Shown here: in pieces, positions 4,637 through 28,477 of the stretch
Numbering within the stretch: position 1 is the first letter of the stretch
Layout: every line of letters begins with the position of its first letter
From: an uncultured Rhizobiaceae group bacterium
GTDB taxonomy: Bacteria; Pseudomonadota; Alphaproteobacteria; Rhizobiales; Rhizobiaceae
Reading direction: 5' to 3'
NCBI GenBank assembly: GCA_937958815.1
Contig: CALGMR010000001.1
Coordinates: forward strand, 96,300-160,299
Length of the DNA stretch: 64,000 nt
Made by a program: the position numbers and the translations under genes
The notes under the pieces: model-generated
What the model was told of the DNA's origin: nothing
Seen by the model: only the letters and a program-made list of their open reading frames with translations
Databases searched by the model: none

Positions 4637-4874
4637 AAAGTGTCCAAAATCACAGTAAGTCAGCACTGAATCATAATGCCTGCTTGGTCTTCCTTACATC
4701 ACCGCAATAAAAAACGCTCGAAAATGACTGATTCTTCCACAGGCGACGATGGACGCGGGGGTGAGAAAGTCGTACAAGCGTCAAGTAATCTTCCGTAAGG
4801 TCAATTAGACTTGCGGATTTCAACGAAGCGCCAAGCATAGTGCCCACAGCGCAAAGACGAGAGAAAGAAGCCCA

Positions 4875-5216
4875 ATGAGCAAACGCGACGATCTTATCGC
4901 CAAATACGCAGATGATTTGAAAAACAAATGCGGCATGTCACCAGACATGGACCTTTTGACAAAAGTGACCATTGGTTGCGGTCCTTCTATCTACAATGCT
5001 GACGCGTCAACCGTTTCAGGTTCTGACCAGTCAGAACTCGACACAGTAAAGAACAACTTCCTGATCAAGAAACTTGGTTTGGGCGATGGCCCGAAGCTTG
5101 ATGAAGCCATCGATGCTGTGATCACAACTTACGGCAAATCAGAGCGCAACAAATACCGCGCTGTTGTTTATTACATGCTGACAAAACACTTCGGCAAAGA
5201 AAGCGTTTACGGTTAA
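4875..5216 (+). CDS. DUF2853 family protein
   Basis: 113 aa. Conserved blocks SGSDQSELDTVKNNFLIKKLG and RNKYRAVVYYMLTKHFGK are shared with the paralog at 5933-6244. Confidence 0.7.
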   Translation: MSKRDDLIAKYADDLKNKCGMSPDMDLLTKVTIGCGPSIYNADASTVSGSDQSELDTVKNNFLIKKLGLGDGPKLDEAIDAVITTYGKSERNKYRAVVYYMLTKHFGKESVYG

Positions 5217-5251
5217 GGCGAACGGCTCATAAGCCAATTGGTTTAGACACA

Positions 5252-5292
5252 ACGTCATGGCGAGTACCTGCTCGCCATGACGTTTCTTTTTG
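5252..5292 (+). terminator. rho-independent terminator after the DUF2853 gene
   Basis: Perfect 13-bp stem (acgtcatggcgag / ctcgccatgacgt) with a 6-nt loop, followed by ttctttttgg. Confidence 0.85.
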
Positions 5293-5304
5293 GAATCCCG
5301 AAAA

Positions 5305-5784
5305 CTACTGGTTTTTGCTGAGCTCTACCCAGTTTTTGTCACCATCTTCGATAAATTTAGGAATGTCGCCTTCCCAAAGGCTTTGGACATTCTTATCGTA
5401 ATTCAAATACAATTTGTTATCGACCACAGTGAAAGCATCTGGCTCCGTTTTCGCCGTTGATCCTTTTGCAACCGCATAAGCGCAAAAGCCGCCATACTGT
5501 GGGGCATATTTTTCTGGGTTTGCCTCAAACAAGGCCTTGTTCTCAGCCGAAGCAAAACGCCACGTCACGCCTTTCCAGGAATGGGTATACGCATCGCTGC
5601 CTTCCACCGGTTTGCCTTCGGTAATATAAGCAACCGTGTCGTATCCGTTGATCGCAATGCCCGGTGTTTTGCCCGTAAACACAGGGCCAGCGGCCAAAAC
5701 CTCACGCGTTTGCCAAAAATATGCACCAGTGCCACCAACCGCGACAACCGCTGCTGCACCCAACAAAAATATACGTCTGTTCAT
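5305..5784 (-). CDS. YHS domain-containing periplasmic protein with a Tat-like signal
   Basis: 159 aa. The N-terminus MNRRIFLLGAAAVVAVGGTGAY resembles a Tat/Sec signal. The body contains GYDTVAYITEGKPVEG..WRFASAENKALFEANPEKYAPQYGGFCAY, typical of YHS-type proteins. Confidence 0.75.
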   Translation of the reverse strand: MNRRIFLLGAAAVVAVGGTGAYFWQTREVLAAGPVFTGKTPGIAINGYDTVAYITEGKPVEGSDAYTHSWKGVTWRFASAENKALFEANPEKYAPQYGGFCAYAVAKGSTAKTEPDAFTVVDNKLYLNYDKNVQSLWEGDIPKFIEDGDKNWVELSKNQ

Positions 5785-5876
5785 GACATCATCCTAAAAA
5801 AATTGCCTGAAAACCCGATACACTGATTGCACGAATTCAATACGGCAAAGCCACTCAATCGTTTTCACATCTTTGT

Positions 5877-5911
5877 GCAAACAAAAAGGCAGCGCATATT
5901 TGCACTGCCTT
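5877..5911 (-). terminator. rho-independent terminator after the second DUF2853 gene
   Basis: On the minus strand the stem is aaggcag..ctgcctt, extended by an inner gca/tgc pairing, followed by TTTGTTTG. Confidence 0.7.
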
Positions 5912-5932
5912 CCAAGTCAGTTTGTTAGAGGC

Positions 5933-6244
5933 TTATAAATCGCCTAATTTGCCGTGATGTTTGGCCACTAGATAGTAAAAGGTCACACGACTTTTGTTGC
6001 GATCGCCTTTCATGGTTTCACATACTTTTCCAATTACATCATCACAAGCTGAAGCATCGGTTTCGCCGAGTTTCTTCATGCACCATTTCTCGCGGACACG
6101 ATCAAGTTCTGATGTGTCAGAACAAGACACCAAAGATGAATCTTTTCCCCGAAGAGCAATTCCAAGATGTTTGACGATTTTTTCAACAACACCGGCATCT
6201 GCACCGGAATCATAGCGTTTCACGTCATCAAGATATTCACTCAT
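5933..6244 (-). CDS. DUF2853 family protein (divergent paralog)
   Basis: 103 aa. The motifs SCSDTSELDRVREKWCMKKLG and RNKSRVTFYYLVAKHHGK parallel those of the 4875-5216 product. Confidence 0.7.
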   Translation of the reverse strand: MSEYLDDVKRYDSGADAGVVEKIVKHLGIALRGKDSSLVSCSDTSELDRVREKWCMKKLGETDASACDDVIGKVCETMKGDRNKSRVTFYYLVAKHHGKLGDL

Positions 6245-6405
6245 TTAATAGTCTCCCAATATTGGGCTCCCATAAGAAGCCAATTTCTGTTTGCCGAGGC
6301 CACACTTTCCTGCGTTTTTGTATTCTTGCGTGCCCATCGGCAAACTCCTCATTTTGCCCCTAAATTCAATCTGGCCTTTTCATAATCAATTGCCAACCCT
6401 ATATA

Positions 6406-6745
6406 GGGGGGGCTGGAGCAATCCAGATATGGTGATAAATGACCTTTGTAATAAGCCATTCGGACCCGGGGGCGGTACCCGGCGCCTCCACCAAGCTGCT
6501 TGAAACGCTGTTTTAAAGCGTCTTGGCGGGGGCGAAATAGGATCGACGAGGGTGTAAAGACTGCGTTTTCACTCGGCATGGTACCCACCGATATCGGGCC
6601 ATTATAGTAGTTGCAAATGATAACAACTATGTGGAAGCACGCGTCGCTGCGTAAGCAGTGCCAAGTACTTCAATTTAACTCCTAAGGGTTCACTCCCTTG
6701 GGCGGGGTCCGAAGGCACCTGGCAACAGAAGCCTTCACTTTTCCC
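6406..6745 (+). ncRNA. ssrA: tmRNA (SsrA), circularly permuted two-piece alphaproteobacterial type; outer boundaries approximate
   Basis: The acceptor piece has a T-arm (ccggg-ggcggta-cccgg, 6466-6482) followed by cgcctccACCA ending at 6493. After a 34-nt intervening segment the coding piece starts with GGGGGCG at 6528. That start pairs 7 bp with the acceptor 3' strand and includes a G3:U70 pair. The D-loop-like aaataggatcgacg follows. The tag reading frame 6613-6651 encodes ANDNNYVEARVAA with a TAA stop at 6652-6654. A hairpin plus T-run lies at 6711-6745. Confidence 0.85.
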
Positions 6746-7729: not shown

Positions 7730-10700
7730 TCAATTGTCTGCCGGAACCTCATCCAGCTCTAGTGGGTCGTCCTCAAAGTTCAATTGCAAACGTTCCGCGG
7801 CGCGGTTGGCACGCTCCCTCAAAGCTTCAATTTGCTTTTCCTGCTCAGCCAAACGCTTCGCTTCCGCAGCAGCTTCTTTCGCAGCTTCTTCCGCTTCGAT
7901 TTGCGCTTTCTTTTCTTCTTCTAAAAGACGTCTGATCTCGTCGGCTTTACGGCGTTTTTCCTCTTCAATCTTCAATTGTTCCAAACGCCGTCTCTCAGCT
8001 TCGGCAACGCGTTCGGCTTCTTCACGTAAGGCGTAAACCCGCGCGGTGCGCGTCAGCCTTTGACGTTCTAAAATTTCGGCCCGCTGTGCTAAAAATTCGC
8101 GTTCTCGCCGTTCGCTCAAACGCAGCCCCAGATAGGTTTCAAAGAAAGTTGTATCCGTGGATACATCCAGATTGTCGGCAGGGCCTTGAGCGGTGATAAA
8201 TATTTCAGGTTCAGCACCAGCCAGAGCATCTTTGCCCGATGCAAAATTCAAGCGGCTTTCAAATTTTGCGGTTTGATCATCAAAAGCATAACTGGCCTTG
8301 CCAGAAAGCTTCAGATCTTTATCTCCAAGTTCGATAGAGTTGATCCGCAATTCACCTTCGGCCAGCGTGAAAGCAAAATTGCCTTGGCCAAATGCAAATG
8401 ACTTATGGAAAACGCCGTCGGAAATAATCCTTCCTGCAGCCGCTGGAAGTGCTTTGTCTTCAACACCATCACTGGAGACCAATATTGGGCGAAACGCACC
8501 GGAGTTCACACCCTCCAAAACACCGTTTGAAATGCGAATTTCACCCCCACCGGCAAGCGAACTGAGAACGCTTTCGCGTTTTGAATTTGCCCCGTCAAAA
8601 TTGAATGACAGGTCCAGCTCGCCAATAAGCTTTTGCGGAAGCTTCGCCAATTTGAAAAGCTCTTGAGCATCCACTGCCTTCAACTGCAACGCACCATTTG
8701 TTGTCGCAGACCTTTCGCTTTGGGCAAGCGATACTTGCCCCGAAAGTTGACCGCCCAGCCATGTTGCTTGCAGTTCGTTGAAACGCATATCGCCGTCGCG
8801 CAAGTTCATGACACCAGTTACGTTTTGAACAGGCGGTTGGGTCCCCACACGCAGTTCGTTGACCTTCAGCTCGATGTTCCCATCCAATCCTGCAAGCAGA
8901 GGTTTTGGTTTTATGCCTGCAGCAACATCCACATCGCCGGTGTGTACAAAATTGCGCAAACTTTCGGCATCCAAACTCGTGGCAGATAATTGACCAGCGA
9001 GAACGGGCCGCGGCAGTTGATCTGTTTTCAGAACCAATTCCCCTTCAATCAAGTGGTCTGAAATCTGAGTGCTGAGTTTGCCAAATGTGTAGGTGGCGTC
9101 TGAAACAGACAATTCGGTTTTGAACTTTGCAGTTCCTCCATCTCCATATCCCGGCACTGGAAGACCTGACATCAGGATCACACTATCCAGATCTGAGATT
9201 TCGCCTGAAACGGAAAGCACACCGTCCAGTGCAAAACTGTCACCCAACAGTTTTGGTTTTAAGTTTCCGGCTGCGCTCACATATCCCGACTTCAGGGTCA
9301 AAGCGGATTCCGTTTCAAAACCGCTCGCCATATTTCCAATTCCGGAAATCCTAAAAGCCGCTCGCCCAGTTTGATCCAACGGCACGACAGGCACACCCAA
9401 TTGCAGCATCAATTTGGAAGCTTCGGGATTGACCAAAACAAGTTTGAAAGATTGTTCACTGGTAGCCTTTGCTCCAGCAACAGTGACGCCAGAAAGGTTA
9501 GCGTCAATTTCGCTCCCGCCGCTTGTTCCCTCAAAAGTAAGCGAAAGCCCGTTGTCTGGCCCTTCTCCACTCAGTGCAAATTTCAAGTCTGTGTTGTCCG
9601 TCAGTGCAGGATCGTCTCGCAATCGGCTGAGTTCTGGAAGTCCGCCAAGCCTTGTGTTGATCAAATTCAAGAGTTTGGATGGGTCTTGCGCCACAACACG
9701 CCCGTCAATTTTGCCGGATGGTGTGGACAGTAAATTTTCCACGGCCCCAGCAATGGTCACCTCGGCACCTGCCAAATCACCAATAGTGATCTTCTCAATC
9801 TTCAAAGATTGCGCGCTGCGCTGTAATTTCGCCTGCACCTTGTGTGCCACTGCTCCTGAAACCACAGCCTTTTCTGCATTGAGATCTAGATCAATGTTTT
9901 GCGCGATCAAACCGCTGCCTGGCGCATTATTGGTTATCAGTCTGGCAAGTGCATCGAGTTGATCAAAATTGGCTTCATCGCCTGCCAACTTCAATGAAAG
10001 GGCATTTTCGCCACCATTTTGAGACCCGTAAGACACACTTCCCTTCAATGATTTTCCATCAATCACAAGTTCTAAATTGTTGGCCTCAAAGCTTTTGGAG
10101 TTTATGTCCACATTTCCAGAAAATCCGGTGCCTGTCATATCTCTGATGGTTTGCGATGCTTCTACGCCGAGCCACTTTGCAAGACCAGAAGGTTGCCGAG
10201 ATGCAACAACCACGTCTCCCCTAAAGTTCACATCATCTTCAACCAAGAGTTCCCCATCGGCACGCAAATCTGTGCGCCCCGGCATTTGTGCGCTAAGGTT
10301 GCCCACAAACCAGCCCTTACCACTTTCCAATGGTCGCAAATCCACGCCCACGTCTCGTATCACAGTGTCGCCCGCAACAACTGCGGGAAGAAACAAACTG
10401 ATCGTGCTGTTGTCCGGCATTCTTGGAAGTTGTTTTAGAAATTGACTGGCCGCTGCAATGCGCGAAGACAAACCACTTTGACCCACACTATCATTCGTTG
10501 CTTGGCCCTCTTGAAAACGCTTAAGGTCAATCTGTTGACCCTCCGCATTCGCACGCATCGATACCACTTCGTCAAAGCGGATGTCAGCTGAACCCGTCAG
10601 AGAATATGGATCTTCCGCATTGCCTATATCCATTTTGTAAGCTGGAAAAGAGGCGCCCGAAACTGCCAAAGTCACATCGCTTTCCAGCCGGACAGGAAGT

Positions 10701-16975: not shown

Positions 16976-17096
16976 AGGCTTCCCTCCCTCTAGCTTTTGC
17001 AGCTTGTTCTTGTTTCGTGTGCTGTTCAAATACAGCACTTTTTACCCACACAAAGTGCAGCAGATTTGTTCCCATTGTGTGGCTGCCGCTCAACTT

Positions 17097-17115
17097 TGTG
17101 CAGATTATGTGCAGA
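17097..17115. promoter_or_regulatory. perfect 8-nt direct repeat TGTGCAGA-tta-TGTGCAGA (11-bp register), a candidate response-regulator site
   Basis: Read directly from the sequence. A third GTGCAG lies at 17055-17060. The repeat sits in the divergent intergenic region between the OmpR-type regulator gene and uvrD. Confidence 0.3.
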
Positions 17116-17193
17116 CGGCCCATTTGTCGCGGCATTAAAAATGAAAACCTGCAGGTGCTACCAATCACGGTGAAAAACACCTAAGTACATTCC

Positions 17194-19842
17194 ATGAACG
17201 AACCTGTCCCGAATCAAGCTGCTGGCGGCATTGCTGCGCGTGCTCTGGGCGCCGCGCGGCGTGCCCCGGACAATGCTGCTTTGCCTTATTTAGAAGGGTT
17301 GAACCCTGAGCAATTGGACGCGGTGTTGAGCACCGAAGGCCCCCTGCTTGTTTTGGCAGGCGCCGGCACAGGCAAAACCCGTGTATTGACCACACGCATC
17401 ACCCATATTCTGCAACAGCAACTGGCATGGCCGAGCCAGATTTTGGCCGTCACCTTCACCAACAAAGCTGCGCGCGAAATGAAAAACCGCATCGCAGCAC
17501 AAGTGGGCGAAGCCGTGGAAGGCATGCCGTGGCTTGGCACGTTCCACTCTATCTGCGTGAAAATCTTGCGCCGCCACGCAGAGCTTGTGGGTCTGAAATC
17601 CGGTTTCACGATTTTAGATACTGACGACACGATCCGCCTGCTCAAGCAAATCATTCAGGCGGAAAACATCGACGACAAACGCTGGCCAGCGCGCCAATTG
17701 GCGAATTTGATCGACGGCTGGAAAAACAAAGCGCTTGGGCCAGAGCAAATTCCCGAAGGCGAAGCCCGCGCATTTGGCAACGGTATGGGTCGTGAACTTT
17801 ACACCGCCTATCAAGACCGCCTGAAAATTCTGAACGCCTGCGACTTTGGCGATTTGCTGGTCGAATGTATCCGCCTGTTCCGCGAAAACCCCGACGTTCT
17901 GGCCGACTACCATGGCCGCTTCAAATATATTCTGGTGGACGAATATCAGGACACCAACGTTGCCCAATATTTGTGGTTGCGATTGCTGGCGCAGCCGCGA
18001 TCTTCAAACTCTTCCCTCTCCCCCCAGCGTGGGGGAGATGTCACCGTAGGTGACAGAGGGGGGGAGCAAACAGAAAATCCCGCCCCCCCTCTGTCTGTTG
18101 CACAGACATCTCCCCCACAAGGGGGGAGAATGGGTGACCATGACAGCCCTCAAAACACCCAAGGAAGCGAAGAGCGACCCGCGACAGCGCCCGGCTGGAG
18201 CGAAGGCGCAGCCGACAGCGTGAGGCAAAACCAAACCAGCAGCGAATATTCGCCAACGAATATTTGCTGCGTCGGCGATGATGACCAATCGATTTATGGT
18301 TGGCGCGGGGCGGAAGTGGAGAACATTCTGCGCTTTGACAAGGATTTCAAAGACGCGAAGGTCATCCGTCTGGAACGCAACTACCGTTCGACCTCGCACA
18401 TTCTCAAAGCGGCCAGCCACCTGATCACCCACAATGAAGGGCGTTTGGGAAAGACCCTATTCACCGACCTCACCGACCCTGACGAAGAAAAATTGAAGGT
18501 TGCCGCAGGGTGGGACAGTGAAGAAGAAGCCCGTGCCATTGGCGAAGAAATTGAAAGCCTGCAACGCAAAAAACATGCGCTGAACGACATTGCCATCCTG
18601 GTGCGCGCCTCGTTTCAAATGCGCGAGTTTGAAGATCGCTTCGTGTCGCTCGGCCTGAACTACCGCGTCGTGGGTGGCCCGCGCTTTTATGAACGCATGG
18701 AAATTCGTGACGCCATGGCCTATTTCCGCGTCACCTGTCAGCCCGCCGATGATCTGGCTTTTGAGCGCATCGTCAACACGCCGAAGCGCGGTTTGGGCGA
18801 TGCCACAATCAAACTGATCCGAGACCATGCCCGCGCCCGTCGCATTCCCATGCTCGCCGCAGTGCGTGAAATGACGGAAACTGAAGAACTCAAGCCCAAA
18901 CAGCGTATGACGCTCAAAACGCTTGCGCTCAATTTCGGACGCTGGGCGGACTCCGTCACCACCATGAAACACACCGATCTTGCCGAGATGATCTTGGAAG
19001 AAAGCGGCTATACGGAATTTTGGCAAAACGACCGCAGCGCAGAAGCGCCAGGCCGTTTGGACAACTTGAAAGAACTCATCCGCTCCATGGAAGAGTTTGA
19101 ATCCCTCCCCGGCTTTCTGGAACATGTTTCGCTGGTGATGGACACGGAAAACGATCCGAATTTGGACGCCGTCAATCTGATGACATTGCACTCCGCAAAG
19201 GGGTTGGAATTTGACACCGTGTTCTTGCCCGGTTGGGAAGAAGGCCTGTTCCCCCACCAGCGCAGTTTGGATGAAGGCGGACGCACGGGCTTGGAAGAAG
19301 AACGCCGCCTCGCCTATGTGGGCATCACCCGCGCGCGCAAAAACTGCCACATCTGGTTCGTGTCAAACCGCCGCATTCACGGCCAATGGCAAGCCTCCAT
19401 CCCCAGCCGTTTCATCGATGAATTGCCCGCAGACAATGTGGACGTGGTGGAACCTTCCGGCAATTATGGTGGCTACAGCAATGGCGGCAGCGCCTATGGC
19501 AAGTCACGGTTCGACACGTCCGACCCGTTCAACAATTCGGGCTATTCCTCCCCCGGCTGGAAACGCGCCCAAGCCAATGCCAACGAAGATACTAAAAACA
19601 ATTGGGGCACACGCTCCGGCTATAAATCCACCTATTCCGGCGGCCCCCGCACCATAGAAGGCGAACTTGTCGCCAAATCCGTCATCGGCGCAGATGAAAG
19701 CACGTTCGCCATGGGAGAACGCGTCTTCCACATGAAATTCGGCTACGGCGCGATTACGAATATCGACGGGAACAAACTGACAATTGAATTCGAAAAAGCT
19801 GGCGAAAAGCGCGTGCTAGATTCATTTGTAGAGCGTCATTGA
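17194..19842 (+). CDS. uvrD: ATP-dependent DNA helicase UvrD/PcrA family (helicase II) with an internal insertion
   Basis: SF1 helicase motifs are present: AGAGTGKT, DEYQDTN, VGDDDQSIYGWRGA, NYRS, TLHSAKGLEF and YVGITRAR. A C-terminal Gly-rich linker is followed by a small domain (VFHMKFGYGAITNIDGNKL). Confidence 0.93.
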   Translation: MNEPVPNQAAGGIAARALGAARRAPDNAALPYLEGLNPEQLDAVLSTEGPLLVLAGAGTGKTRVLTTRITHILQQQLAWPSQILAVTFTNKAAREMKNRIAAQVGEAVEGMPWLGTFHSICVKILRRHAELVGLKSGFTILDTDDTIRLLKQIIQAENIDDKRWPARQLANLIDGWKNKALGPEQIPEGEARAFGNGMGRELYTAYQDRLKILNACDFGDLLVECIRLFRENPDVLADYHGRFKYILVDEYQDTNVAQYLWLRLLAQPRSSNSSLSPQRGGDVTVGDRGGEQTENPAPPLSVAQTSPPQGGRMGDHDSPQNTQGSEERPATAPGWSEGAADSVRQNQTSSEYSPTNICCVGDDDQSIYGWRGAEVENILRFDKDFKDAKVIRLERNYRSTSHILKAASHLITHNEGRLGKTLFTDLTDPDEEKLKVAAGWDSEEEARAIGEEIESLQRKKHALNDIAILVRASFQMREFEDRFVSLGLNYRVVGGPRFYERMEIRDAMAYFRVTCQPADDLAFERIVNTPKRGLGDATIKLIRDHARARRIPMLAAVREMTETEELKPKQRMTLKTLALNFGRWADSVTTMKHTDLAEMILEESGYTEFWQNDRSAEAPGRLDNLKELIRSMEEFESLPGFLEHVSLVMDTENDPNLDAVNLMTLHSAKGLEFDTVFLPGWEEGLFPHQRSLDEGGRTGLEEERRLAYVGITRARKNCHIWFVSNRRIHGQWQASIPSRFIDELPADNVDVVEPSGNYGGYSNGGSAYGKSRFDTSDPFNNSGYSSPGWKRAQANANEDTKNNWGTRSGYKSTYSGGPRTIEGELVAKSVIGADESTFAMGERVFHMKFGYGAITNIDGNKLTIEFEKAGEKRVLDSFVERH
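18017..18129. repeat. nested GC-rich palindromic repeat element embedded in frame in uvrD
   Basis: Two 8-bp-stem hairpins, tctccccc-N-gggggaga, lie at 18017-18038 and 18109-18129. They bracket an inverted repeat whose left arm is tgggggagatgtc..gacagaggggggg and whose right arm is its reverse complement (18030-18064 versus 18083-18117). Each arm contains its own small hairpin (tgtcacc gta ggtgaca; tgtctgt tgc acagaca). Confidence 0.7.
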
Positions 19843-19849
19843 GGGTGTT

Positions 19850-20416
19850 TTAGTCTTCGTTGTACATAATTTCGTATCGAGCAAAATGCCAATTTAGTAA
19901 GCGCATCAATCCCAACAAACCAACTGTTCTAATAATCATATAAACGGCGTAACCACTTGAAAACAAAACCAAGCGAAATCTATTAGGTTCGTTAAAATCA
20001 AAAATAAAATGAGAGCATATGAAGATCACACTGAAAACAGCGAGCGCACATTGAATTATGAATACAAATTGTGGATAGAACACGAAGGAATTGAATAGCT
20101 TTTCTTCCATCAAGTAGTCCGAGAATGGGTATTTAGATGTCAAATTCATGATGTGATTAATTGACGAAATCGAAAACGCAGCAATTATTCCAGAAAACAC
20201 CAAAAGAGACGTATGAAAAGAAACAAACTCATCCGACGAGATTTTGTTTTCGAAATTGAATTCATATTTTTCAATTATGACAAGAGGTAGAAAGCAACAC
20301 ACCGAAAACAGCAATGGAATATATGCGCAAATTCCGTACTTAGTTTCAGAGTGTTCAATGAGCTCAAAAAAGCTCGCCGGCAATGATTTAGGACCAGTGT
20401 CACTCTTTTTCGTCAT
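19850..20416 (-). CDS. hypothetical small integral membrane protein (4 predicted TM helices), low GC
   Basis: 188 aa. Hydrophobic segments are YGICAYIPLLFSVCCFLPLVII, LLVFSGIIAAFSISSINHI, FVFIIQCALAVFSVIFICSHFIF and LVLFSSGYAVYMIIRTVGLLGL. The ATG at 20416 overlaps the upstream ORF by 17 nt. I recognise no family. Confidence 0.6.
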   Translation of the reverse strand: MTKKSDTGPKSLPASFFELIEHSETKYGICAYIPLLFSVCCFLPLVIIEKYEFNFENKISSDEFVSFHTSLLVFSGIIAAFSISSINHIMNLTSKYPFSDYLMEEKLFNSFVFYPQFVFIIQCALAVFSVIFICSHFIFDFNEPNRFRLVLFSSGYAVYMIIRTVGLLGLMRLLNWHFARYEIMYNED

Positions 20417-21335
20417 CTGTTAATCGCCTCGCAACTGTACGGACATCTGTGACATGCTTTTGATCAAACGGATATCTCATTCTTAAATTGGGAAACTCTA
20501 CTTTAACATCTAACTCTTCCCCGTGGACAACATCTTTGATTTCGTCTCCCAATTCTCTTGTATTTTGAGGCTTAGAAACACTTATGCGAACACCATTGTC
20601 CATTACACCTTTATACCCAACTTTAGCATGGCCACTTTTCTGTAATTGCTGAACTTGTGTAAGAAAACCTCCCTCTAACACCAGAGGGTTAGACTCGACA
20701 GCTTCAACCTTACCTTTGATTTTTCTAATGTGATCTTTAGCGCGATCTTCGTCGAGTTCCATTCCCAGTGGACCTGTGTGAGGGTTCACTGGATTTACTT
20801 CAAATGAGACCTCCGTCAGATTAAAACGTGCAACGGCCTTTCGTAAATCCTGAGATTCCCGAATAGCTTCAATGACAAAGAACTGATTGGTTCGATGAGC
20901 CAAAATCGCATGCAGTCTTGCCATAGCAGAATCCGCCCCCAATATTGCTCCATCCACGCAAGCAATAATGCCCAACCTGGGCATGCAGACAAAAGGAGCA
21001 TGAGGGTAGTCATCATCCGCCACCACTTTAGTTGAAGTTTCGTCTTCAACACGGTCGTAGTTAGTGACTTCGCGCTCTGTGCTATGCTTCCCGACAAGCC
21101 CGCTAAAGTCCGACCCAAACTTGCGCAGGTACATCAAAACAGCATTTTTTTGATTGCGATACTTTGCAAACTCATTGGCCATATCTGGACCAATAGATTT
21201 CAGAAAACCATCATAGTGACGGTCAGGCGCAATAATATCGCCTCTCTTACTCGATATACTATACCGGAAAAATTTATAATGCATATAAAATCCACCAACC
21301 AACTCAAAAAAGGAAAATGGATTTAAATACATCAA
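20400..21335 (-). CDS. hypothetical soluble protein (about 294-311 aa), low GC, no recognisable domain
   Basis: A long open frame in an AT-rich region. Possible starts are TTG 21335, ATG 21332, or ATG 21284 (preceded by GGTGGA). No P-loop, nuclease, HTH or other motif is visible by eye. It is translationally coupled to the downstream TM protein. Confidence 0.6.
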   Translation of the reverse strand: MMYLNPFSFFELVGGFYMHYKFFRYSISSKRGDIIAPDRHYDGFLKSIGPDMANEFAKYRNQKNAVLMYLRKFGSDFSGLVGKHSTEREVTNYDRVEDETSTKVVADDDYPHAPFVCMPRLGIIACVDGAILGADSAMARLHAILAHRTNQFFVIEAIRESQDLRKAVARFNLTEVSFEVNPVNPHTGPLGMELDEDRAKDHIRKIKGKVEAVESNPLVLEGGFLTQVQQLQKSGHAKVGYKGVMDNGVRISVSKPQNTRELGDEIKDVVHGEELDVKVEFPNLRMRYPFDQKHVTDVRTVARRLTDDEKE

Positions 21336-21440
21336 TACGAACAGAATAAAGCAACAGAAATTTTAGATCTCACTGAATCAGAAACAGACTAAATTCAATA
21401 AATGTGGAAAATAAAATTTTTTGACCAGAATATTGAGAAA

Positions 21441-22820
21441 TTACACCACCCAAATATCAATCGGGTTCTGCCGCCCTCTTAGGCGTTGGCCTTTGTGCAG
21501 TTTGAAGGTGTCTTGGCTGCCGTTGCCGGCTTTTTGAACCACGCTGTCGCTGACGACGCATTGGCAGTCGAGTTCTCTTGTGGTGGCTTCCAGACGGCTG
21601 GCGACGTTGACTGTGTCTCCCAGAACGGCGAATTCCAGACGTCTGGCGGGGCCGATGTCGCCCAAGATCACGGGGCCGAAATGCACGCCGATGGAGACTT
21701 TGAGGCTGGGCTTGCCGTGGGCTGAACGTTCGGCGTTGAACGCATCCACATCTTCGATGATCTGCTGCGCGGCGCGCAAGGAATTTGCAGCATCTTCAGG
21801 GGTCGGGTCTGGCGTGCCGAATGTGGCCATCACCCCATCTCCCAAATATTTGTCCAACGTGCCTTTGTTTTGAAAAATCGCCCTTTCCACAATGGCGTGA
21901 TAGTCGCGCAGAAATTCCATCACTTCTTCTGGCGTATGGTCTTCTGCAAATTGGGTAAAGCCCACAATGTCAGTGAACAACACGCCGACATCTTGGCTGC
22001 GGACCGCCCCAAGGTCGCGGTTGGACGCTGCCAAAACATCCACCATGCTGGAGGGGAAGTAACGTGACAGGTTTTGCCGCTCGGCTGCGATTTCAGACTG
22101 CCGGATCAAAAGCTGGTTGGAACGATAGCCTTTCAAACCAAGGATTGCAGCGACCATCAATGCCACCACAGCTTCCTGAATGCGATAGACCGATTGCGCA
22201 GAATTTGGATCCAGCTCAACGGCCACGATCTCATGGCCCGCAAAGGCTTTTGCAGCTGCCGCACTGAGTTCGGGAATGGTTGTGCCAAACAGGTTCATGG
22301 CTGCAAGGCCCACAAGCCAGAACATGAAAATCATCGTGCCCATGGTCCACACCGTGCGCCAAGAATAGGCCAGAGTTCCCACCGACAAGATGACAAAAAA
22401 GAAAACGAAACCATCAAAACGATATGTGAACACCGTGGGAATAACTTCATCAAGAAACGGGTTGGGCAGAATGATAACCAACGTCAACATGGCGAGATCC
22501 AGCGCGATCAAAAACAGTTCGATGCCGGAGCGGCCAACGGTCGCCATGCGCAATTGCAACCACCCAAGCGCGATGAAGCCCAACAGAATGAATTCGTAAA
22601 ACAGAACATTCCAGCGCGGGTTCACAAAAACAAGCAGGCCCATCACCACAGTCAGCGCGATTGTGCGTGCTATGATCGCAAGGCGATGCCCTTCCCGCTT
22701 TTCCGTTTCCAAAGCCTGCGCCAGCAATGGGTTTCGGGCCGCCTGCTCCAACTCTCGTTCGCGCATATTGCGCAAATTTTCCATAAAAGGAGGTAGGGGA
22801 AAAGGAGGATTGTTCGCCAT
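21441..22820 (-). CDS. membrane-anchored class III adenylate/guanylate cyclase
   Basis: An N-terminal polytopic region of about 6 TM helices is followed by a cyclase homology domain (VGVLFTDIVGFTQF..GDGVMATFG..LGDTVNVASRLE). The start is uncertain: GTG 22862, ATG 22820 or ATG 22784. Confidence 0.88.
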   Translation of the reverse strand: MANNPPFPLPPFMENLRNMRERELEQAARNPLLAQALETEKREGHRLAIIARTIALTVVMGLLVFVNPRWNVLFYEFILLGFIALGWLQLRMATVGRSGIELFLIALDLAMLTLVIILPNPFLDEVIPTVFTYRFDGFVFFFVILSVGTLAYSWRTVWTMGTMIFMFWLVGLAAMNLFGTTIPELSAAAAKAFAGHEIVAVELDPNSAQSVYRIQEAVVALMVAAILGLKGYRSNQLLIRQSEIAAERQNLSRYFPSSMVDVLAASNRDLGAVRSQDVGVLFTDIVGFTQFAEDHTPEEVMEFLRDYHAIVERAIFQNKGTLDKYLGDGVMATFGTPDPTPEDAANSLRAAQQIIEDVDAFNAERSAHGKPSLKVSIGVHFGPVILGDIGPARRLEFAVLGDTVNVASRLEATTRELDCQCVVSDSVVQKAGNGSQDTFKLHKGQRLRGRQNPIDIWVV

Positions 22821-22909
22821 AACAGTGGTCCATGTGCGCCCGGAATAAAACGAGCCTACCACCGCAAAACACGAAATTGCAGTCTAAAGAGTGTAAAGAA
22901 GTGTGATGC

Positions 22910-22943
22910 AAAAAAGGCGCCGCTCTTTCGAACGACGCCCTTT
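22910..22943 (-). terminator. rho-independent terminator after glcB
   Basis: On the minus strand: aaagggcgtcg-ttcgaaaga-gcggcgcc followed by TTTTTTG. Confidence 0.75.
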
Positions 22944-22963
22944 GATTTCATCCGTTGAAAAAC

Positions 22964-25135
22964 TTAGCTGGCTTTCTTTTCCAGACGACGCTGGTGCAAA
23001 ATTGGCTCGGTGTAACCACTTGGCTGCTCTTTACCCTTGAGAACCAAATCCATTGCAGCTTGGAACGCGACAGACGTATCCCAATTGCCATCCATAGGTT
23101 CATACAAGGGATCACCTTCGTTTTGACCGTCCACGACCTTCGCCATTTTCTTCATTGTGGCTTCAATCTGTGCTGCATCCACAATACCGTGGTGCAACCA
23201 ATTGGCCATATGCTGGCTGGAAATGCGCAGTGTTGCCCGGTCTTCCATCAGACCAACATCATTGATGTCTGGCAATTTGGAACAGCCCACGCCTTGGTCG
23301 ACCCAGCGCACAACATAACCCAAAATGCCTTGGGCATTGTTGTCGAGCTCGGCCTGAATATCTTCTGGTGACCAGTTCGGGCGTTCCGCCACGGGAATAG
23401 ACAAAATGTCCGTCAGTTTCGCGCGGCCACGCTGTTTAATGTCCGCCTGTACATCGTGCACATTCACCTGATGATAATGGGTTGCATGCAGTGTTGCAGC
23501 CGTCGGGCTTGGCACCCAAGCGGTGTTGGCACCCGCTTTCGGATGGCCAATTTTCTGCTCAAGCATCGCCGCCATAAGGTCTGGCATGGCCCACATGCCC
23601 TTGCCAATCTGCGCCCTGCCCTGCAAACCGCATTCAAGGCCAATGTCCACATTCCAGTCTTCGTAAGCTGCAATCCATGACGAGGCTTTCATATCCGCCT
23701 TGCGGATCATCGGGCCAGCTTCCATAGATGTGTGCATCTCGTCGCCTGTGCGGTCCAGGAAACCTGTATTGATGAACACAACGCGGTTTTTGGCGGCGCG
23801 GATGCATTCTTTCAGGTTCACCGTTGTGCGGCGTTCCTCATCCATAATGCCCATTTTCATAGTGTTTGGTTTCATGCCCAGCGCTGCTTCCACGCGGTCA
23901 AAAATTTCCACTGCAAAAGCCACTTCTTCAGGGCCGTGCATTTTGGGCTTCACCACATACATAGAACCTTCCGATGAGTTCACACGACGTCCGTTTTCGC
24001 CCACATCATGCAAAGAACAAGCCGCTGTCATCATGGCGTCCATAATGCCTTCGGGAATTTCGGAACCATCCGCGAGCAAAATTGCAGGGTTGGTCATCAA
24101 GTGCCCCACGTTGCGGGTCAGCATCAAAACCTGAGCCTTCATGCTCATGCTTTCACCAGATGTATCAAGATAAGAACGTGCTTCGTTCAAACGGCGCACC
24201 ATAGTGGAGCCACCTTTTTCAAAGCTCTCTTCCAGATCACCTTTCATGAGGCCAAGCCAATTGCGATAGGCCACCACTTTATCTTCCGCATCAACTGCAG
24301 CAATCGAATCTTCATTGTCCATGATGGAGGTCAATGCGGATTCCAAAACTACATCCGCAATACCAGCCATATCGGTTTCACCAATCGGGTGTTGACGATT
24401 GATGACAATGTCCAAATGCATCCCGTTCTTCACAAGAAGGATGTTGTCGAGACCTGCTTCTGTTCCGTTGTAGCCAACAAATTGAGCCGGATCAGACAGA
24501 CCAGCCGTGCCACCATCTTTCAGAGAAACAACCAATTTTCCAGCCTCAACGCTGAAACCTGTAACATCGGCCCAAGAGCCCATGGCCAGAGGCGTGCTTT
24601 CGTTCAAGAAATTGCGCGCCCAAGCGATAACTCTGTCGCCGCGCACTTTGTTATAGCCCGGCCCTTTGGCTGCTCCGCCCTCTTCAGAAATCGCATCTGT
24701 GCCGTAAAGCGCATCATACAGCGAGCCCCAGCGGGAATTTGCGGCGTTCAACGCATAACGCGCATTCATCACGGGAACCACAAGTTGAGGGCCAGCTATT
24801 TTTGCAATCTCGTCGTCCACATTGTCCGTTTCAACAGAAAACGCAGGGCCTTCGCCAACGATATAACCGATGTCGCGCAGGAAGTTTTGATAGACTTCCA
24901 TATCGCTGAACATGCCGCGGTTTTCGCGATGCCATTCATCGACCTTGGTTTGAAGGTCGTCGCGTTTGGTCAACAGAGCTTTGTTTTTTGGGGCCAGTTC
25001 GTTGGCGATTGCGCCCAGTGCATCCCAATATGCGGACTGCTCCACACCTGTTCCTGGCAAAACTTCGTCATTGACGAAATTATACAATTCAGCGGCAACA
25101 GACACGCCACCAACTTCAACGCGATCAACACTCAT
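22964..25135 (-). CDS. glcB: malate synthase G
   Basis: About 723 aa and collinear with GlcB ([12 protein letters not shown].., ..[21 protein letters not shown]..). The ATG at 25135 is preceded by GGGAGA. The ORF track starts 18 nt upstream. Confidence 0.95.
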
Positions 25136-25234: not shown

Positions 25235-26131
25235 CTATTTGGACCAATCCAACGCTTCATCCAGCCAGCCTGATGGAGTTCCATGACCTCCAGCATGAAG
25301 GCAAAATCGAATGGGCACACCCGTTTCGCATCCTGTCCAATCGCGGCACCAAAGGTTGCCCTTGGTTTCGATTTTAGCAGGCTTGGAACCGCATTGGTTT
25401 GTGGTGCGCTGCACAGACAAACCTTCAAAAACATCCCCTTGGTGCCAAGAGCGAATTCCGCGACCTTCGAGCGGCACCTGTCCATCGGAAAAGCCATGAA
25501 TGTGCAACATTTTGCGCGGCCCACCCGGACATTTTCGCAAATCCGCACCAGTGGCATCTTGGCCATATGGGGCTGGCAATGGTCGTCTCAATCCACCTGC
25601 AACTGCAGCGATCGCCGCATAACTGCGTTTGGAATAGCACCCAACATACCAAGCCATTGAGCCACCAGAAGAAAATCCTGACAGCACAGTGGAATTGGGA
25701 ACGGTCGGAATACGCTCACTAATATCTTCTAAAACACGTTCAACAAAGGCGATATCATCCCGTGCACCGCGGGGCGACGTGCCCTCCAGACGCGCGGCCC
25801 AACCGCGTGTGGTGCGGCCGCGAAATGTAAACTCAGGCCCATCGGGTGCCACTAAAACATATCCTGCCTTTGCCACGGTGCGCGCCAAATTTTTATTCCG
25901 TGCCACGGCTTTGCCTGAACCATTGTGCCCATGAAAGAATACAAACGGTTTTAGTTTTTGTTTCCCGTCCCAGTTTTTAGGGAACACCAGATGATACGTG
26001 CCACCATCTTTGCCGGGCAATTCACAAGGGCTATCAATCGCACAGGGCAGATCTTGAGCGAACACGGTTGAAGGTGCGAGAAAGCTCGCAGCAACCAGCA
26101 AGTTTAACGAAATGGCCTTTAGCAATATCAT
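25235..26131 (-). CDS. secreted alpha/beta-hydrolase esterase, PHB-depolymerase (LpqC-like) family
   Basis: Signal peptide MILLKAISLNLLVAASFLAPSTVFAQ, nucleophile elbow GFSSGGSMAW, and a family-typical HGHNGSG block. The start was set at the ATG at 26131. Confidence 0.75.
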   Translation of the reverse strand: MILLKAISLNLLVAASFLAPSTVFAQDLPCAIDSPCELPGKDGGTYHLVFPKNWDGKQKLKPFVFFHGHNGSGKAVARNKNLARTVAKAGYVLVAPDGPEFTFRGRTTRGWAARLEGTSPRGARDDIAFVERVLEDISERIPTVPNSTVLSGFSSGGSMAWYVGCYSKRSYAAIAAVAGGLRRPLPAPYGQDATGADLRKCPGGPRKMLHIHGFSDGQVPLEGRGIRSWHQGDVFEGLSVQRTTNQCGSKPAKIETKGNLWCRDWTGCETGVPIRFCLHAGGHGTPSGWLDEALDWSK

Positions 26132-26313
26132 CCAAGGTTTTTGACGGGATTCGCCTGCTTTCACAATCACGCATTGTTCACTTTTACGCCACTCACACAA
26201 ACGGCCCAACAACACTAGGTTGTCGACACTTCGACACTTATTGTTAACAAAATCTTCGTTTACTACACTGAATATGCCAGCGACACAGAAACTGCATACT
26301 CCAGCGAGACGGT

Positions 26314-26556
26314 GTGACCATGTCGGGCAATATCAAAAACAACCTTGCTGAAATTGAAAAGCTGATTGAGAAAGAACAATTCCTCAGGTTGAGTGTGTTG
26401 GATGTTCAAAATTACGATGGAACTCTGGTCGTTATGACCGATGATGCTGTTCCACGCCCGTTTGTACGAATGATTTTAAGAAACGTTTGGAATGGGCCCA
26501 TTGAGGTTTTCTGTGCCTCAGCCCTTATGGGTGGCAGCAACGCATCTCTCGTTTAA
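26314..26556 (+). CDS. hypothetical small protein (orphan ORF)
   Basis: An 80-codon ORF (GTG 26314 or ATG 26320) in an otherwise empty 430-nt gap. No family is recognised and GC is slightly lower than in the neighbours. Confidence 0.35.
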   Translation: MTMSGNIKNNLAEIEKLIEKEQFLRLSVLDVQNYDGTLVVMTDDAVPRPFVRMILRNVWNGPIEVFCASALMGGSNASLV

Positions 26557-26647
26557 TTGCTGCGAAAGAGGTTGATCTCACACCATAATCTGTGATGCGA
26601 AAGCTTCTTCAATTGCATCCGCAATGCAGAACAGATACGTCTTTTGA

Positions 26648-28477
26648 ATGACAGGACTTATCGTAAAATTAGCCGTTATTGGTTTCTCAGGCATCGCCTC
26701 CCAATGGATTGCATGGCGGGTTAGAATTCCAGCCATCGCGCTTTTATTGTTGGCAGGGCTGCTGTTAGGGCCCGTGACAGGCTATGTCGCCCCGCAACAA
26801 GATTTAGGTGATCTGTACAAACCGATCATCGCTCTGTCTGTCGCCATCATTTTGTTCGAAGGTGGCCTCACCCTGAATTTTCGGGAAATCCGCGAAACAT
26901 CCAGCGCTGTTCGCGCCATCATACTGATCGGTGGGCCACTGGTCTGGTTGTTTTCCGCATTGAGTGCGCACTACGCGGCTGGCTTGTCCTGGCCATCCGC
27001 CATTGTATTGGGCGCGATATTGGTCGTCACAGGGCCAACCGTCATCATGCCTTTGCTGCGACAGGCCCAATTGAGCCATCGCCCTGCTGCATTGTTGCGA
27101 TGGGAAGCCATCGTCAACGACCCGATCGGCGCATTATTTGCGGTCATATCATTCGAAGTCTATTTGGTTTTGCACGGGTCTCATGGTGCTTCTGACTTGG
27201 TTCTAACACTCATTTTAGGAGCCATCATCGCTGTCGGTGGCGGATATGCAGCGGGAACAGCCGTTGCAAGAGCATTCGTTGGCGGCAAGGTTCCAGAATT
27301 TCTAAAATCGCCCGTCCTTTTGGTTGTCGTCTTAGGCGCCTATGCGATTTCCGATCTGGTGTTGGAAGAGTCTGGTTTGCTCACCGTGACCGTGATGGGC
27401 ATTACATTGGCCAATTCAAAACTGGCAAGTCTCACAGAACTGCGCCGATTTAAAGAAACCATCACTGTTCTGTTGGTGTCAGGTTTGTTCATTTTGCTGA
27501 CTGCGTCATTAGACTTAAACGCGCTCTATTCATTGGGTTGGGGAGCAGCTTTATTCGTTGCCCTCGTTCTGTTCGTTGTGCGGCCAATTGCAATCATGAT
27601 CGCAACCGCAGGGCGTGGACTGTCACTGTCTGAACGAGTGTTGGTGTCTTGGATCGCACCGCGAGGCATTGTCGCTGTGGCTGTGTCGGGTCTGTTCGGC
27701 ACTGCTTTGGTAGAAAACGGCGTCGCCGACGGCACTCAGCTGACCGCCCTCACATTTGCCGTGGTGGCATCAACCATTCTTCTGCATGGTTTCACCTTGG
27801 CTCCTCTGGCCAGCGCGTTTGGCTTAAAGTCGGCGGAAAAACCCGGTATTATGATTGTCGGCGGGTCAGAATGGTCTGATGCACTGGCGCAAAAACTCAA
27901 AGATCTGGAACTGCCCGTTTTGATTGTGGACTCCAACTACAATCACATTAAGCGATCACGCCTGAACGACATCCCTGTCTTTTATGGTGAAGTTTTGTCG
28001 GAAACCGCGCATCACGACATCACATTAAACCGCTATTCGCATCTTATCGCGGCCACCGACAACGATGCTTACAACTCGCTCGTATGTACGGAGTTCGGTC
28101 CTGAGCTCGGCCGCAGCCACGTCTTTCAAATCGGTTCTGTACGCGACGAAAGTGAGCGCCAGTCCATTAGTGTAACCGTGGGCGGCCGTCCGTTGTTCAA
28201 GCCTGGTCGAGAATTCTCGGAATTGCGTCGCCAAATCTGGAATGGCTGGACATTCCAAAGCACGCGATTGACCGAGGAGTTTAATTACAGCGACTATCTC
28301 GACACGAGAACAAAAGACACAAAGCTGATCTTGTGGGTAAAACCCAATGGTCAAATACACTTCAAACAAGGGCGCGGTGATGCCGAACCCGGCATTGAAG
28401 ACGTTTTGATAGCTTTTGGCCCCGCTTCTGAGCGCGACACCAACCAAAAGTCCAACACTTCATCTGAAAAATTCTAA
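26648..28477 (+). CDS. CPA1-family cation:proton (Na+/H+) antiporter with a C-terminal RCK/TrkA-N-like domain
   Basis: 609 aa. About 12 TM helices in an Na_H_exchanger-type core are followed by IMIVGGSEWSDALAQKLKDLELPVLIVDSN, a Rossmann-like regulatory domain. Confidence 0.88.
   Translation: MTGLIVKLAVIGFSGIASQWIAWRVRIPAIALLLLAGLLLGPVTGYVAPQQDLGDLYKPIIALSVAIILFEGGLTLNFREIRETSSAVRAIILIGGPLVWLFSALSAHYAAGLSWPSAIVLGAILVVTGPTVIMPLLRQAQLSHRPAALLRWEAIVNDPIGALFAVISFEVYLVLHGSHGASDLVLTLILGAIIAVGGGYAAGTAVARAFVGGKVPEFLKSPVLLVVVLGAYAISDLVLEESGLLTVTVMGITLANSKLASLTELRRFKETITVLLVSGLFILLTASLDLNALYSLGWGAALFVALVLFVVRPIAIMIATAGRGLSLSERVLVSWIAPRGIVAVAVSGLFGTALVENGVADGTQLTALTFAVVASTILLHGFTLAPLASAFGLKSAEKPGIMIVGGSEWSDALAQKLKDLELPVLIVDSNYNHIKRSRLNDIPVFYGEVLSETAHHDITLNRYSHLIAATDNDAYNSLVCTEFGPELGRSHVFQIGSVRDESERQSISVTVGGRPLFKPGREFSELRRQIWNGWTFQSTRLTEEFNYSDYLDTRTKDTKLILWVKPNGQIHFKQGRGDAEPGIEDVLIAFGPASERDTNQKSNTSSEKF

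Follow-up and report, generated by a model that had tools for sequence, protein, structure and literature searches.

A candidate Rex-like pair of a soluble and a membrane protein in a compositionally foreign chromosomal islet beside uvrD in an alphaproteobacterium

The closest described systems to the locus reported here are the RexA-RexB pair of lambda and the gene pairs of the actinophages CarolAnn, Sbash and Butters; an exclusion phenotype has been shown by experiment for lambda rexA-rexB, and heterotypic phage exclusion has been demonstrated for the three actinophage pairs (PMC6426596, PMC6426606, PMC7542560). Their soluble proteins have weak HHpred matches to DUF4747, which RexA also carries, and in the model put forward for them a phage product triggers the soluble protein, the membrane protein acts as an ion channel, and membrane potential and adenosine triphosphate (ATP) are lost (PMC6426596, PMC6426606, PMC7542560). 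RexA and its actinophage homologues form dimers, and their binding to double-stranded DNA is non-specific (PMC11077077), and a 'DUF4747/CarolAnn prophage system' has already been included among bacterial immune operons in a 2026 paper (PMC13373217). Here we describe an islet of two genes, A and B, lying between uvrD and an adenylate/guanylate cyclase gene in a 64,000-nucleotide (nt) stretch of contig CALGMR010000001.1 from an uncultured member of the Rhizobiaceae; this whole stretch is called the window, and coordinates are positions in it. The pair is a highly divergent, chromosomal alphaproteobacterial relative of the RexAB/DUF4747-CarolAnn kind, a kind that is itself already known, and it is very likely homologous to the family of modules that couple a DUF4747 protein to a transmembrane protein. 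We regard the islet as probably a horizontally acquired two-gene module of the RexAB/CarolAnn-Sbash type that would act by abortive infection.

The islet (19843-21440) consists of two co-oriented minus-strand open reading frames (ORFs), identified from the ORF list and the sequence, whose order and sizes follow those of the described pairs (Table 1). As in lambda, where rexA and rexB encode 279 and 144 amino acids (aa), a soluble protein of about 280-300 aa comes first and a four-helix membrane protein of about 145-190 aa second, from adjacent genes in the same orientation. CarolAnn gp44/gp43 (370 and 178 aa, 26-nt overlap) and Sbash gp30/gp31 (372 and 165 aa, 41-nt overlap) likewise have the soluble protein first and a protein with four transmembrane segments second, and resemble the islet in joining a soluble DUF4747-related protein to an overlapping four-transmembrane protein of 165-178 aa. 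The soluble proteins of these two pairs, and of Butters gp30/gp31, also share with A the weak or peripheral character of their DUF4747 matches. The 17-nt overlap of A and B implies translational coupling, whereas rexA and rexB are separated by a 15-nt gap. Further differences from lambda are that RexA is basic (isoelectric point 8.6) and A near-neutral (6.6), that B exceeds RexB by about 45 aa and has an additional amphipathic helix at its N-terminus as well as a C-terminal tail, and that the window pair lies outside a prophage and without co-transcription with a cI-type repressor, its neighbours being uvrD and the cyclase gene. CarolAnn gp44 and Sbash gp30 are about 75 aa longer than A, and their genes are prophage-borne in actinobacterial hosts beside immunity or integration genes, whereas the window pair is chromosomal and alphaproteobacterial.

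In base composition the islet departs sharply from its surroundings. Its guanine-plus-cytosine (GC) content is 0.392 against 0.503 for the whole window (z = -6.4; same-size windows elsewhere have a mean of 0.505, a standard deviation of 0.018 and a minimum of 0.456), and it forms the most AT-rich 1.6 kb of the window and the lowest-GC kilobase among 64. GC at third codon positions (GC3) is 0.38 in A and 0.40 in B, compared with 0.64 in uvrD and 0.63 in the cyclase gene, which indicates that the shift is not an amino-acid effect. In its other hosts the pair has a GC content of 0.46-0.52 and a GC3 of 0.44-0.57, while host GC is 0.55-0.68 and neighbour-gene GC3 0.6-0.9; the pair is compositionally foreign in every host examined.

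The original prediction, made from the window alone, had described the two minus-strand ORFs, their 17-nt overlap and the 7-nt gap to the uvrD stop, and these coordinates were borne out. Its contrast in GC is real, although overstated in size, the flanking genes having a GC content of 0.54-0.56 rather than 0.60-0.65. The leader upstream of A is AT-rich and abuts the cyclase stop as had been said, but is 156 nt long instead of 105, because A starts at the ATG at 21284: an M-x-Y-K/R block lies at, or aligns to, this codon in all 19 aligned homologues, and the extension from the TTG at 21335, which would give a protein of 311 aa, is unconserved and was rejected on this alignment. We infer that the leader holds the promoter of the pair. 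A Shine-Dalgarno sequence, GGTGGA, is found 6 nt ahead of the A ATG, its role being presumed, and a scan with the sigma-70 consensus returned no promoter on the minus strand of the leader, the overall count of sites equalling the shuffled expectation; an alignment of the leaders of 12 loci contained no conserved element. The earlier statement that the islet lacks an integrase, transfer RNA (tRNA), insertion sequence (IS) and flanking repeat agrees with our scans: the ORFs of 17000-24500 include neither an integrase nor an IS ORF, the window contains a transfer-messenger RNA (tmRNA) at 6398-6745, 13 kb from the islet, but no tRNA, and the search for direct or inverted repeats flanking the islet gave only short chance matches.

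Protein A is predicted to have a two-domain fold of the RexA/RdgC type. Its confident AlphaFold2 model, built from a 20-sequence alignment (predicted local distance difference test score, pLDDT, 83.4; predicted TM-score, pTM, 0.76), retrieved lambda RexA (8twq_B) as the top match among 350,542 PDB chains searched with Foldseek (E 6e-4, probability 0.99) and E. coli RdgC (2owl) as the second (probability 0.99, TM-score 0.39-0.42). Over the RdgC structures (2OWL/2OWY) Foldseek probabilities were 0.94-0.99 with the highest TM-scores obtained; RdgC is, like A, a protein of about 300 aa, and it is a structural homologue of RexA (PMC11077077), of the same fold class. The model of A comprises a beta-rich part (residues 1-111) with a helix at 117-132, an alpha/beta part (134-236), and a final strand (258-263) and helix (275-289). 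This order of secondary structures mirrors that of RexA, in which a split globular domain (1-139 and 248-279) is interrupted by an inserted dimerisation domain (143-234; PMC11077077), so that the best PDB match of A also shares its split-domain layout. The best BFVD matches of the model are five phage proteins, 277-322 aa long and uncharacterised, at E 5e-9 to 3.5e-7, and a phage RdgC comes next.

By sequence, A belongs at the periphery of the DUF4747 superfamily (PF15931) and not to the Pfam RexA family (PF15969). Neither A nor B was matched when Pfam, PADLOC, NCBIfam and PHROGs were scanned directly. A word-indexed search returned 71 homologues of A, all of about 295 aa, a few of which carry a precomputed PF15931 tag. 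All named homologues are from Alphaproteobacteria (Bradyrhizobium, Rhizobium, Rhodopseudomonas, Pseudolabrys, Rhizomicrobium, Kiloniellaceae). Two alignments were used for profile searches, A1 (A with 19 homologues) and A3 (a wider set of 49 sequences). The A1 profile matched 98 clusters at E <= 1e-3 among 1.84 billion representatives of 50% identity clusters, among them a second tier with E 1e-30 to 1e-9 whose members are about 300 aa long, and it reached protein P0168 at E 6.2e-4 over the same 1.84 billion proteins. P0168 scores 56.7 bits on PF15931, for which the gathering cutoff is 27, and is the sole distant relative above threshold; P0152 (25.6 bits) and P0099 (19.4 bits) fall just below it, and five of the 49 A3 sequences match PF15931 at E <= 1. 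The chain also holds in the other direction, as a hidden Markov model built from the distant, second-tier relatives alone scores window A at 163.5 bits, and phmmer connects P0097 to window A (E 5e-19) and P0168 to P0040, a homologue 48% identical to A (E 2.1e-7). Precomputed PF15931.11 tags are weak for a 98%-identical twin of A and stand at E <= 1e-5 for P0097 and for P0002, a protein that shares 65% identity with A. Eight of 49 distant relatives match phrog_10040, a family of unknown function, and searches of PDB sequences with the A1 and A3 profiles gave chance troponin matches or nothing.

The two Pfam versions disagree on this clade: PF15931.11 marks P0002 and P0097 as DUF4747, and PF15931.10 matches neither. 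The DUF4747 annotation of the A clade depends on the Pfam release.

Protein B was originally described as having four hydrophobic helices, in agreement with the 4-5 hydrophobic peaks of a Kyte-Doolittle scan and with an AlphaFold model (pLDDT 81.4, pTM 0.72) in which an amphipathic helix at the N-terminus is joined by four long helices and, at a PFSDYL motif, a short one (helices at 12-31, 33-50, 61-93, 98-104, 108-139 and 143-187). Queried alone, B retrieved no homologue other than itself, and a profile search with the B alignment gave 12 clusters, none of them with a Pfam tag. The ORF behind each A homologue is homologous to B, with 14-41% identity and shared motifs; the partners from the genome scan described below align with B from end to end at 22-27% identity, and the partner of P0002 is 41% identical. 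Four motifs are common to the family, R-G...P-W before the first transmembrane segment (TM1), P-F-S-D-Y-L between TM2 and TM3, W-P-Q at the start of TM3, and K-T-W...R-x-L-A-W-H...Y at the C-terminus, and conservation is highest in the N-terminal helix, in the PFSDYL motif of the central loop and in the R-x-L-x-W-H-x-x-x-Y tail at the C-terminus.

Two weak but agreeing signals are suggestive of a similarity between B and the actinophage membrane components gp43 and gp31. An hhalign comparison of an 18-sequence B profile with CarolAnn gp43 plus Sbash gp31 gave E 1.3e-3 with a probability of 18%, over 105 columns in register from TM2 to TM4. A Foldseek search of BFVD with the B model returned no significant match, and the best-superposing of the top ten entries was a Sbash protein of 165 aa (TM-score 0.42/0.47, root-mean-square deviation 5.0 A, E 1.4), the same length as gp31. 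Substitutions in the central loop of Sbash gp31 abolish defence, and the most conserved motif of B is in the equivalent central loop.

The pairing of A with B is conserved. A genome scan for A homologues found 11 loci, and in all eight with DNA extending past A the next ORF encodes a multi-transmembrane protein of 178-202 aa. Altogether 13 loci have an A homologue followed by an intact multi-transmembrane ORF of 171-202 aa that aligns with B, usually with an overlap, the junctions extending from 23 nt of overlap to a gap of 18 nt, and at a fourteenth (L015) the partner is present but frameshifted. The arrangement extends to the distant tier, where P0168 is followed, at a 23-nt overlap, by a protein of 171 aa with four transmembrane segments that is the most divergent of the partners (14% identity to B), P0093 by a 194-aa transmembrane ORF, and P0097 by an uncalled transmembrane ORF of 194 aa with the B motifs. 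Decaying copies were also seen. At L008 (7944-9871) B is missing, and IS3-like transposase ORFs come after an A homologue cut short at 243 aa, and at L015 (8866-9496) the B homologue is split by the frameshift into overlapping ORFs of 114 and 104 aa beside an intact A.

Three short contigs from other samples carry cyclase, A, B and uvrD collinear with the window at 88-93% nucleotide identity. Retention of the pair at this locus in relatives of normal GC had been named beforehand as a point against the original prediction; the pair is kept in all three contigs, but their islet copies share the abnormal GC of the window. One of them (L023:1-2848, about 88% identical) was compared with window positions 19736-22577. 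Codon differences are 40 synonymous and 5 non-synonymous in A and 26 and 6 in B, with protein identities of 98.3% and 96.8%; this synonymous excess indicates that A and B are real genes, and both are under purifying selection. At fourfold-degenerate sites divergence is 19% in A (23/121) and 14% in B (9/63), against 51% in the adjacent cyclase gene (86/169), from which it follows that the coding sequence of the islet is younger than its flank. The simplest reading suggests that the islet was exchanged between these lineages after their split, at the same locus and without mobility genes. The leader is 79% identical to that of L023, nearer to the divergence of the flank, and does not sit easily with a recent exchange. 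An islet-free uvrD-cyclase junction was not found, a metagenome scan with the cyclase giving only cyclases of about 30% identity.

The functional part of our reading, in which the pair excludes phage by way of the membrane, has in our estimation a slightly better than even chance of being correct. By analogy with the described systems, A would be a cytoplasmic protein of RexA/RdgC fold, probably a dimer formed through its middle domain, with its N- and C-terminal parts making up one beta-rich domain that the middle alpha/beta domain interrupts. It may sense infection by binding a structure of DNA, or of protein and DNA, that the phage makes, or a phage protein, as can be proposed from RexA and the actinophage homologues. 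B would be a four-helix inner-membrane protein kept in a fixed ratio to A by the 17-nt overlap. If its N-terminus faces inward, its three most conserved parts (N-terminal helix, PFSDYL loop and C-terminal tail) would all lie in the cytoplasm, where A could dock on them. Once activated, A would switch B to a state that conducts ions or perturbs the membrane, with a fall in membrane potential and ATP and an abortive end to the infection. This is also the logic proposed for lambda RexAB, in which a cytoplasmic sensor activates a membrane partner and infection aborts. That A dimerises and binds DNA, that it contacts B, that the membrane is depolarised and that the pair has an anti-phage phenotype are points carried over to the window pair from these analogues and are to be read as putative.

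The guess of the original prediction that the islet encodes a sensor and a transmembrane effector of abortive-infection type fits this evidence, and the pair appears to co-occur in every relative examined. Its label of 'undescribed', with neither product in a nameable family, is contradicted by the predicted RexA/RdgC fold of A, by the chain of profiles to DUF4747, and by a gene order and sizes as in lambda RexA-RexB, CarolAnn gp44-gp43 and Sbash gp30-gp31. Of the checks it had proposed, the Pfam and PADLOC family scans came back empty, and the AlphaFold and Foldseek structure search led to RexA and RdgC. The likenesses it drew to Kiwa and to the effectors of CBASS, Pycsar and retrons were rejected, PADLOC returning no model match for A, B or 48 distant relatives, and the defence-island or mobile context it envisaged was likewise rejected, all identified neighbours being housekeeping genes.

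Several results weigh against a Rex-like exclusion module, the first group of them concerning sequence and structure. PF15969, on which lambda RexA scores 326.8 bits, does not match A or its 19 close homologues at E <= 1-10, and hhalign comparisons of A1 and A3 with lambda RexA were null; A3 gave no signal against gp44 alone or against an alignment of gp44 and gp30. PF15931.10, the local model, matches neither A nor its 19 close homologues. For B, the Pfam RexB model (PF15968, 305.4 bits for lambda RexB) gave no match and hhalign of the B profile with lambda RexB was null, and the signals relating B to gp31 (hhalign probability 18%; Foldseek E 1.4) are individually non-significant. The global TM-scores of the A model are low (0.24-0.27 for RexA and 0.39-0.42 for RdgC). 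The RexA crystal represents a closed form, and the AlphaFold and RdgC structures an open form related to it by a hinge (PMC11077077), which plausibly accounts for the low score of A against 8TWQ, these being whole-chain scores only. PADLOC-DB v2 contains nothing that matches A or B at E <= 1 and gave chance-level matches only for the 48 distant relatives.

The remaining points concern context and mechanism. No prophage, repressor, integrase or defence gene was found near the pair in the window or at 10 other close-clade loci. Relatives of A were absent from 50,697 phage records (tblastn queries A, P0168 and P0097), from 2.9 million viral contigs of IMG/VR (queries A1 and P0097) and from 72,556 plasmids (query A). 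The ion-channel mechanism of lambda RexAB is itself a model, and RexA has RexB-independent roles (PMC11077077).

One alternative gives A, as an RdgC-like DNA-binding protein, a role in the DNA metabolism of the host, as a control on recombination or repair or as a tether of DNA to the membrane via B, and none in phage defence; we consider this unlikely. RdgC does give the highest TM-scores to the A model (0.39-0.42) and phage RdgC appears among the BFVD matches, the pair abuts uvrD in the window, follows ruvC-ruvA-ruvB-ybgC at L014 and is about 2 kb from uvrB at L015 and L003, and some DUF4747/CarolAnn operons are under DNA-damage-responsive CapK/CapS control (PMC13373217). The Pfam model of RdgC, however, matches none of the A homologues scanned. 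RdgC works by itself, as a dimer in the shape of a ring, and is not known to have a conserved partner in the membrane, whereas A is paired with one throughout the family. A family that is rare (98 clusters in 1.84 billion), patchy and foreign in composition, with decaying copies, is moreover atypical for a repair function, and the adjacency to repair genes is a post-hoc observation to be set against the loci beside pccB, argG, rlmN and SDR genes.

A related possibility keeps the sensor-effector logic and changes the signal, so that the pair would be a chromosomal sensor in which an RdgC/RexA-fold DNA clamp, A, gates B in response to aberrant DNA structures or DNA damage, and would not serve phage exclusion. 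The landing beside uvrD, ruvCAB and uvrB would then reflect a functional or insertional link, and spread would proceed by homologous replacement without mobility genes of its own. We judge this improbable.

Equally improbable in our view is a selfish addiction cassette resembling a toxin-antitoxin (TA) system, with B as a membrane toxin that A restrains and spread without any defence benefit. In favour of such a cassette are the compact and translationally coupled two-gene layout, the foreign composition, the insertion sites that differ between genomes, the purifying selection on both genes and the recent exchange relative to the flanks. At 294 aa and with a predicted two-domain RexA/RdgC-like fold, A is nevertheless unlike typical small antitoxins, no TA family of Pfam or PADLOC is matched, and the homologous characterised systems are phage exclusion systems. 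The frameshifted B beside an intact A at L015 and the truncated A without B at L008 are neither of them diagnostic, and TA behaviour and abortive infection are not mutually exclusive.

Very improbable, finally, is a lineage-specific housekeeping membrane complex whose GC dip stems from amino-acid composition or expression level instead of foreign origin: the locus is kept in contigs 88-93% identical to the window, a pccB-adjacent position is shared by Bradyrhizobium, Rhodopseudomonas and a Xanthobacteraceae metagenome-assembled genome (MAG), and mobility genes are lacking nearby, but GC3 is 0.38-0.40 against 0.63-0.64 in the flanks with a similar drop in six other hosts, neighbours differ between lineages, the family is very rare, decayed copies exist, and a synonymous divergence three-fold below that of the flank points to recent exchange.

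If the preferred reading of a Rex-like abortive infection module is correct, such modules would occur not only in the prophages of enterobacteria and actinobacteria but also as free-standing chromosomal cassettes of 1.6 kb in Alphaproteobacteria, including Bradyrhizobium, Rhizobium, Rhodopseudomonas, Hyphomicrobiales, Kiloniellaceae and others. This would extend the known range of Rex-like modules without revealing a new defence principle. Their divergence takes these copies out of reach of the models of Pfam, PADLOC, NCBIfam and PHROGs that were run, and a new profile for each component would make them detectable by annotation pipelines. A well-aligned independent family of both partners could also help to resolve how RexA-type and RexB-type proteins communicate.

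The identified neighbours of close-clade pairs are all housekeeping genes and differ between lineages (Table 1). This variation, the foreign composition, the decayed copies, the one distant relative next to a phage integrase and the low fourfold-site divergence of the islet speak for an accessory module that moves horizontally.

Table 1. Coordinates of the islet and its flanking genes in the window, and genes neighbouring the pair at other loci
Feature	Position	Strand	Remarks
uvrD	17194-19842	+	convergent with B
Spacer GGGTGTT between convergent stops of uvrD and B	19843-19849	.	7 nt; distal islet edge
Gene B, predicted effector, RexB/gp43/gp31 analogue	19850-20416	-	188 aa; four long helices
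Overlap of A stop region and B start	20400-20416	-	17 nt; B ATG 20416; A TGA 20400-20402
Gene A, predicted sensor/DNA-binding component	20400-21284	-	294 aa from ATG; 20400-21335 from TTG
AT-rich leader, cyclase stop to A start	21285-21440	-	156 nt; GC 0.269
Adenylate/guanylate cyclase gene	21441-22820/22862	-	Guanylate_cyc domain; stop at 21441
Neighbours at L014	L014:4148-9450		ruvC-ruvA-ruvB-ybgC; pair 305 nt after
Neighbours at L015	L015:8001-14148		clpS and uvrB; uvrB about 2 kb away
Neighbours at L003	L003:2987-9444		uvrB (about 2 kb) and cold-shock gene
Neighbour at L004	pair at 4674-6129		pccB
Neighbour at L016	pair at 8001-9459		pccB
Neighbour at L017	pair at 8001-9465		pccB
Neighbours at L005			argG and ftsY
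Neighbour at L010			argG
Neighbour at L006			SDR
Neighbour at L007			rlmN
Tight convergent spacer at L006	L006:9407-9409		stop-to-stop gap
Tight convergent spacer at L007	L007:9447-9448		stop-to-stop gap

In three hosts, Bradyrhizobium sp. CB1717, Rhodopseudomonas palustris and the Xanthobacteraceae MAG (L004, L016 and L017), the pair is downstream of the same propionyl-CoA carboxylase beta-subunit gene, pccB, and the genes after the pair differ; this common position speaks for an old insertion or else for a hotspot. The pair is beside DNA-repair genes (uvrD, ruvCAB, uvrB) in about three of seven independent contexts, a post-hoc observation of uncertain significance that could be due to chance, to insertion-site preference or to a functional link with the DNA-clamp-like fold predicted for A. 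In three unrelated loci the B stop lies 2-7 nt from a convergent housekeeping stop, namely 7 nt from that of uvrD in the window, 3 nt from that of the SDR gene at L006 and 2 nt from that of rlmN at L007. Gaps of this size leave no room for terminators, and the spacing hints at insertion exactly at gene ends or at strong compaction.

The only phage-associated copy seen belongs to the distant tier. Its A-like protein, P0097 (299 aa), is encoded immediately after a tyrosine integrase and at the margin of a prophage (L029:4665-12047) that carries capsid-decoration, minor-capsid and DnaB-like genes, and the partner transmembrane ORF is at L029 6890-7474.

Elsewhere in the window, a second and milder dip in GC occurs at 26100-26700, about 5 kb past the islet, with values of 0.42-0.45 in 300-nt windows. 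In the uvrD product, of 882 aa, about 88 aa of low-complexity sequence rich in S, P, G, Q and E (residues 268-355; 17995-18258) are inserted just ahead of the CVGDDDQSIYGWRGA helicase motif. The tmRNA was flagged by ARAGORN as permuted (two-piece), with the tag peptide ANDNNYVEARVAA; the permuted form is typical of Alphaproteobacteria and thus agrees with the taxonomy of the A homologues.

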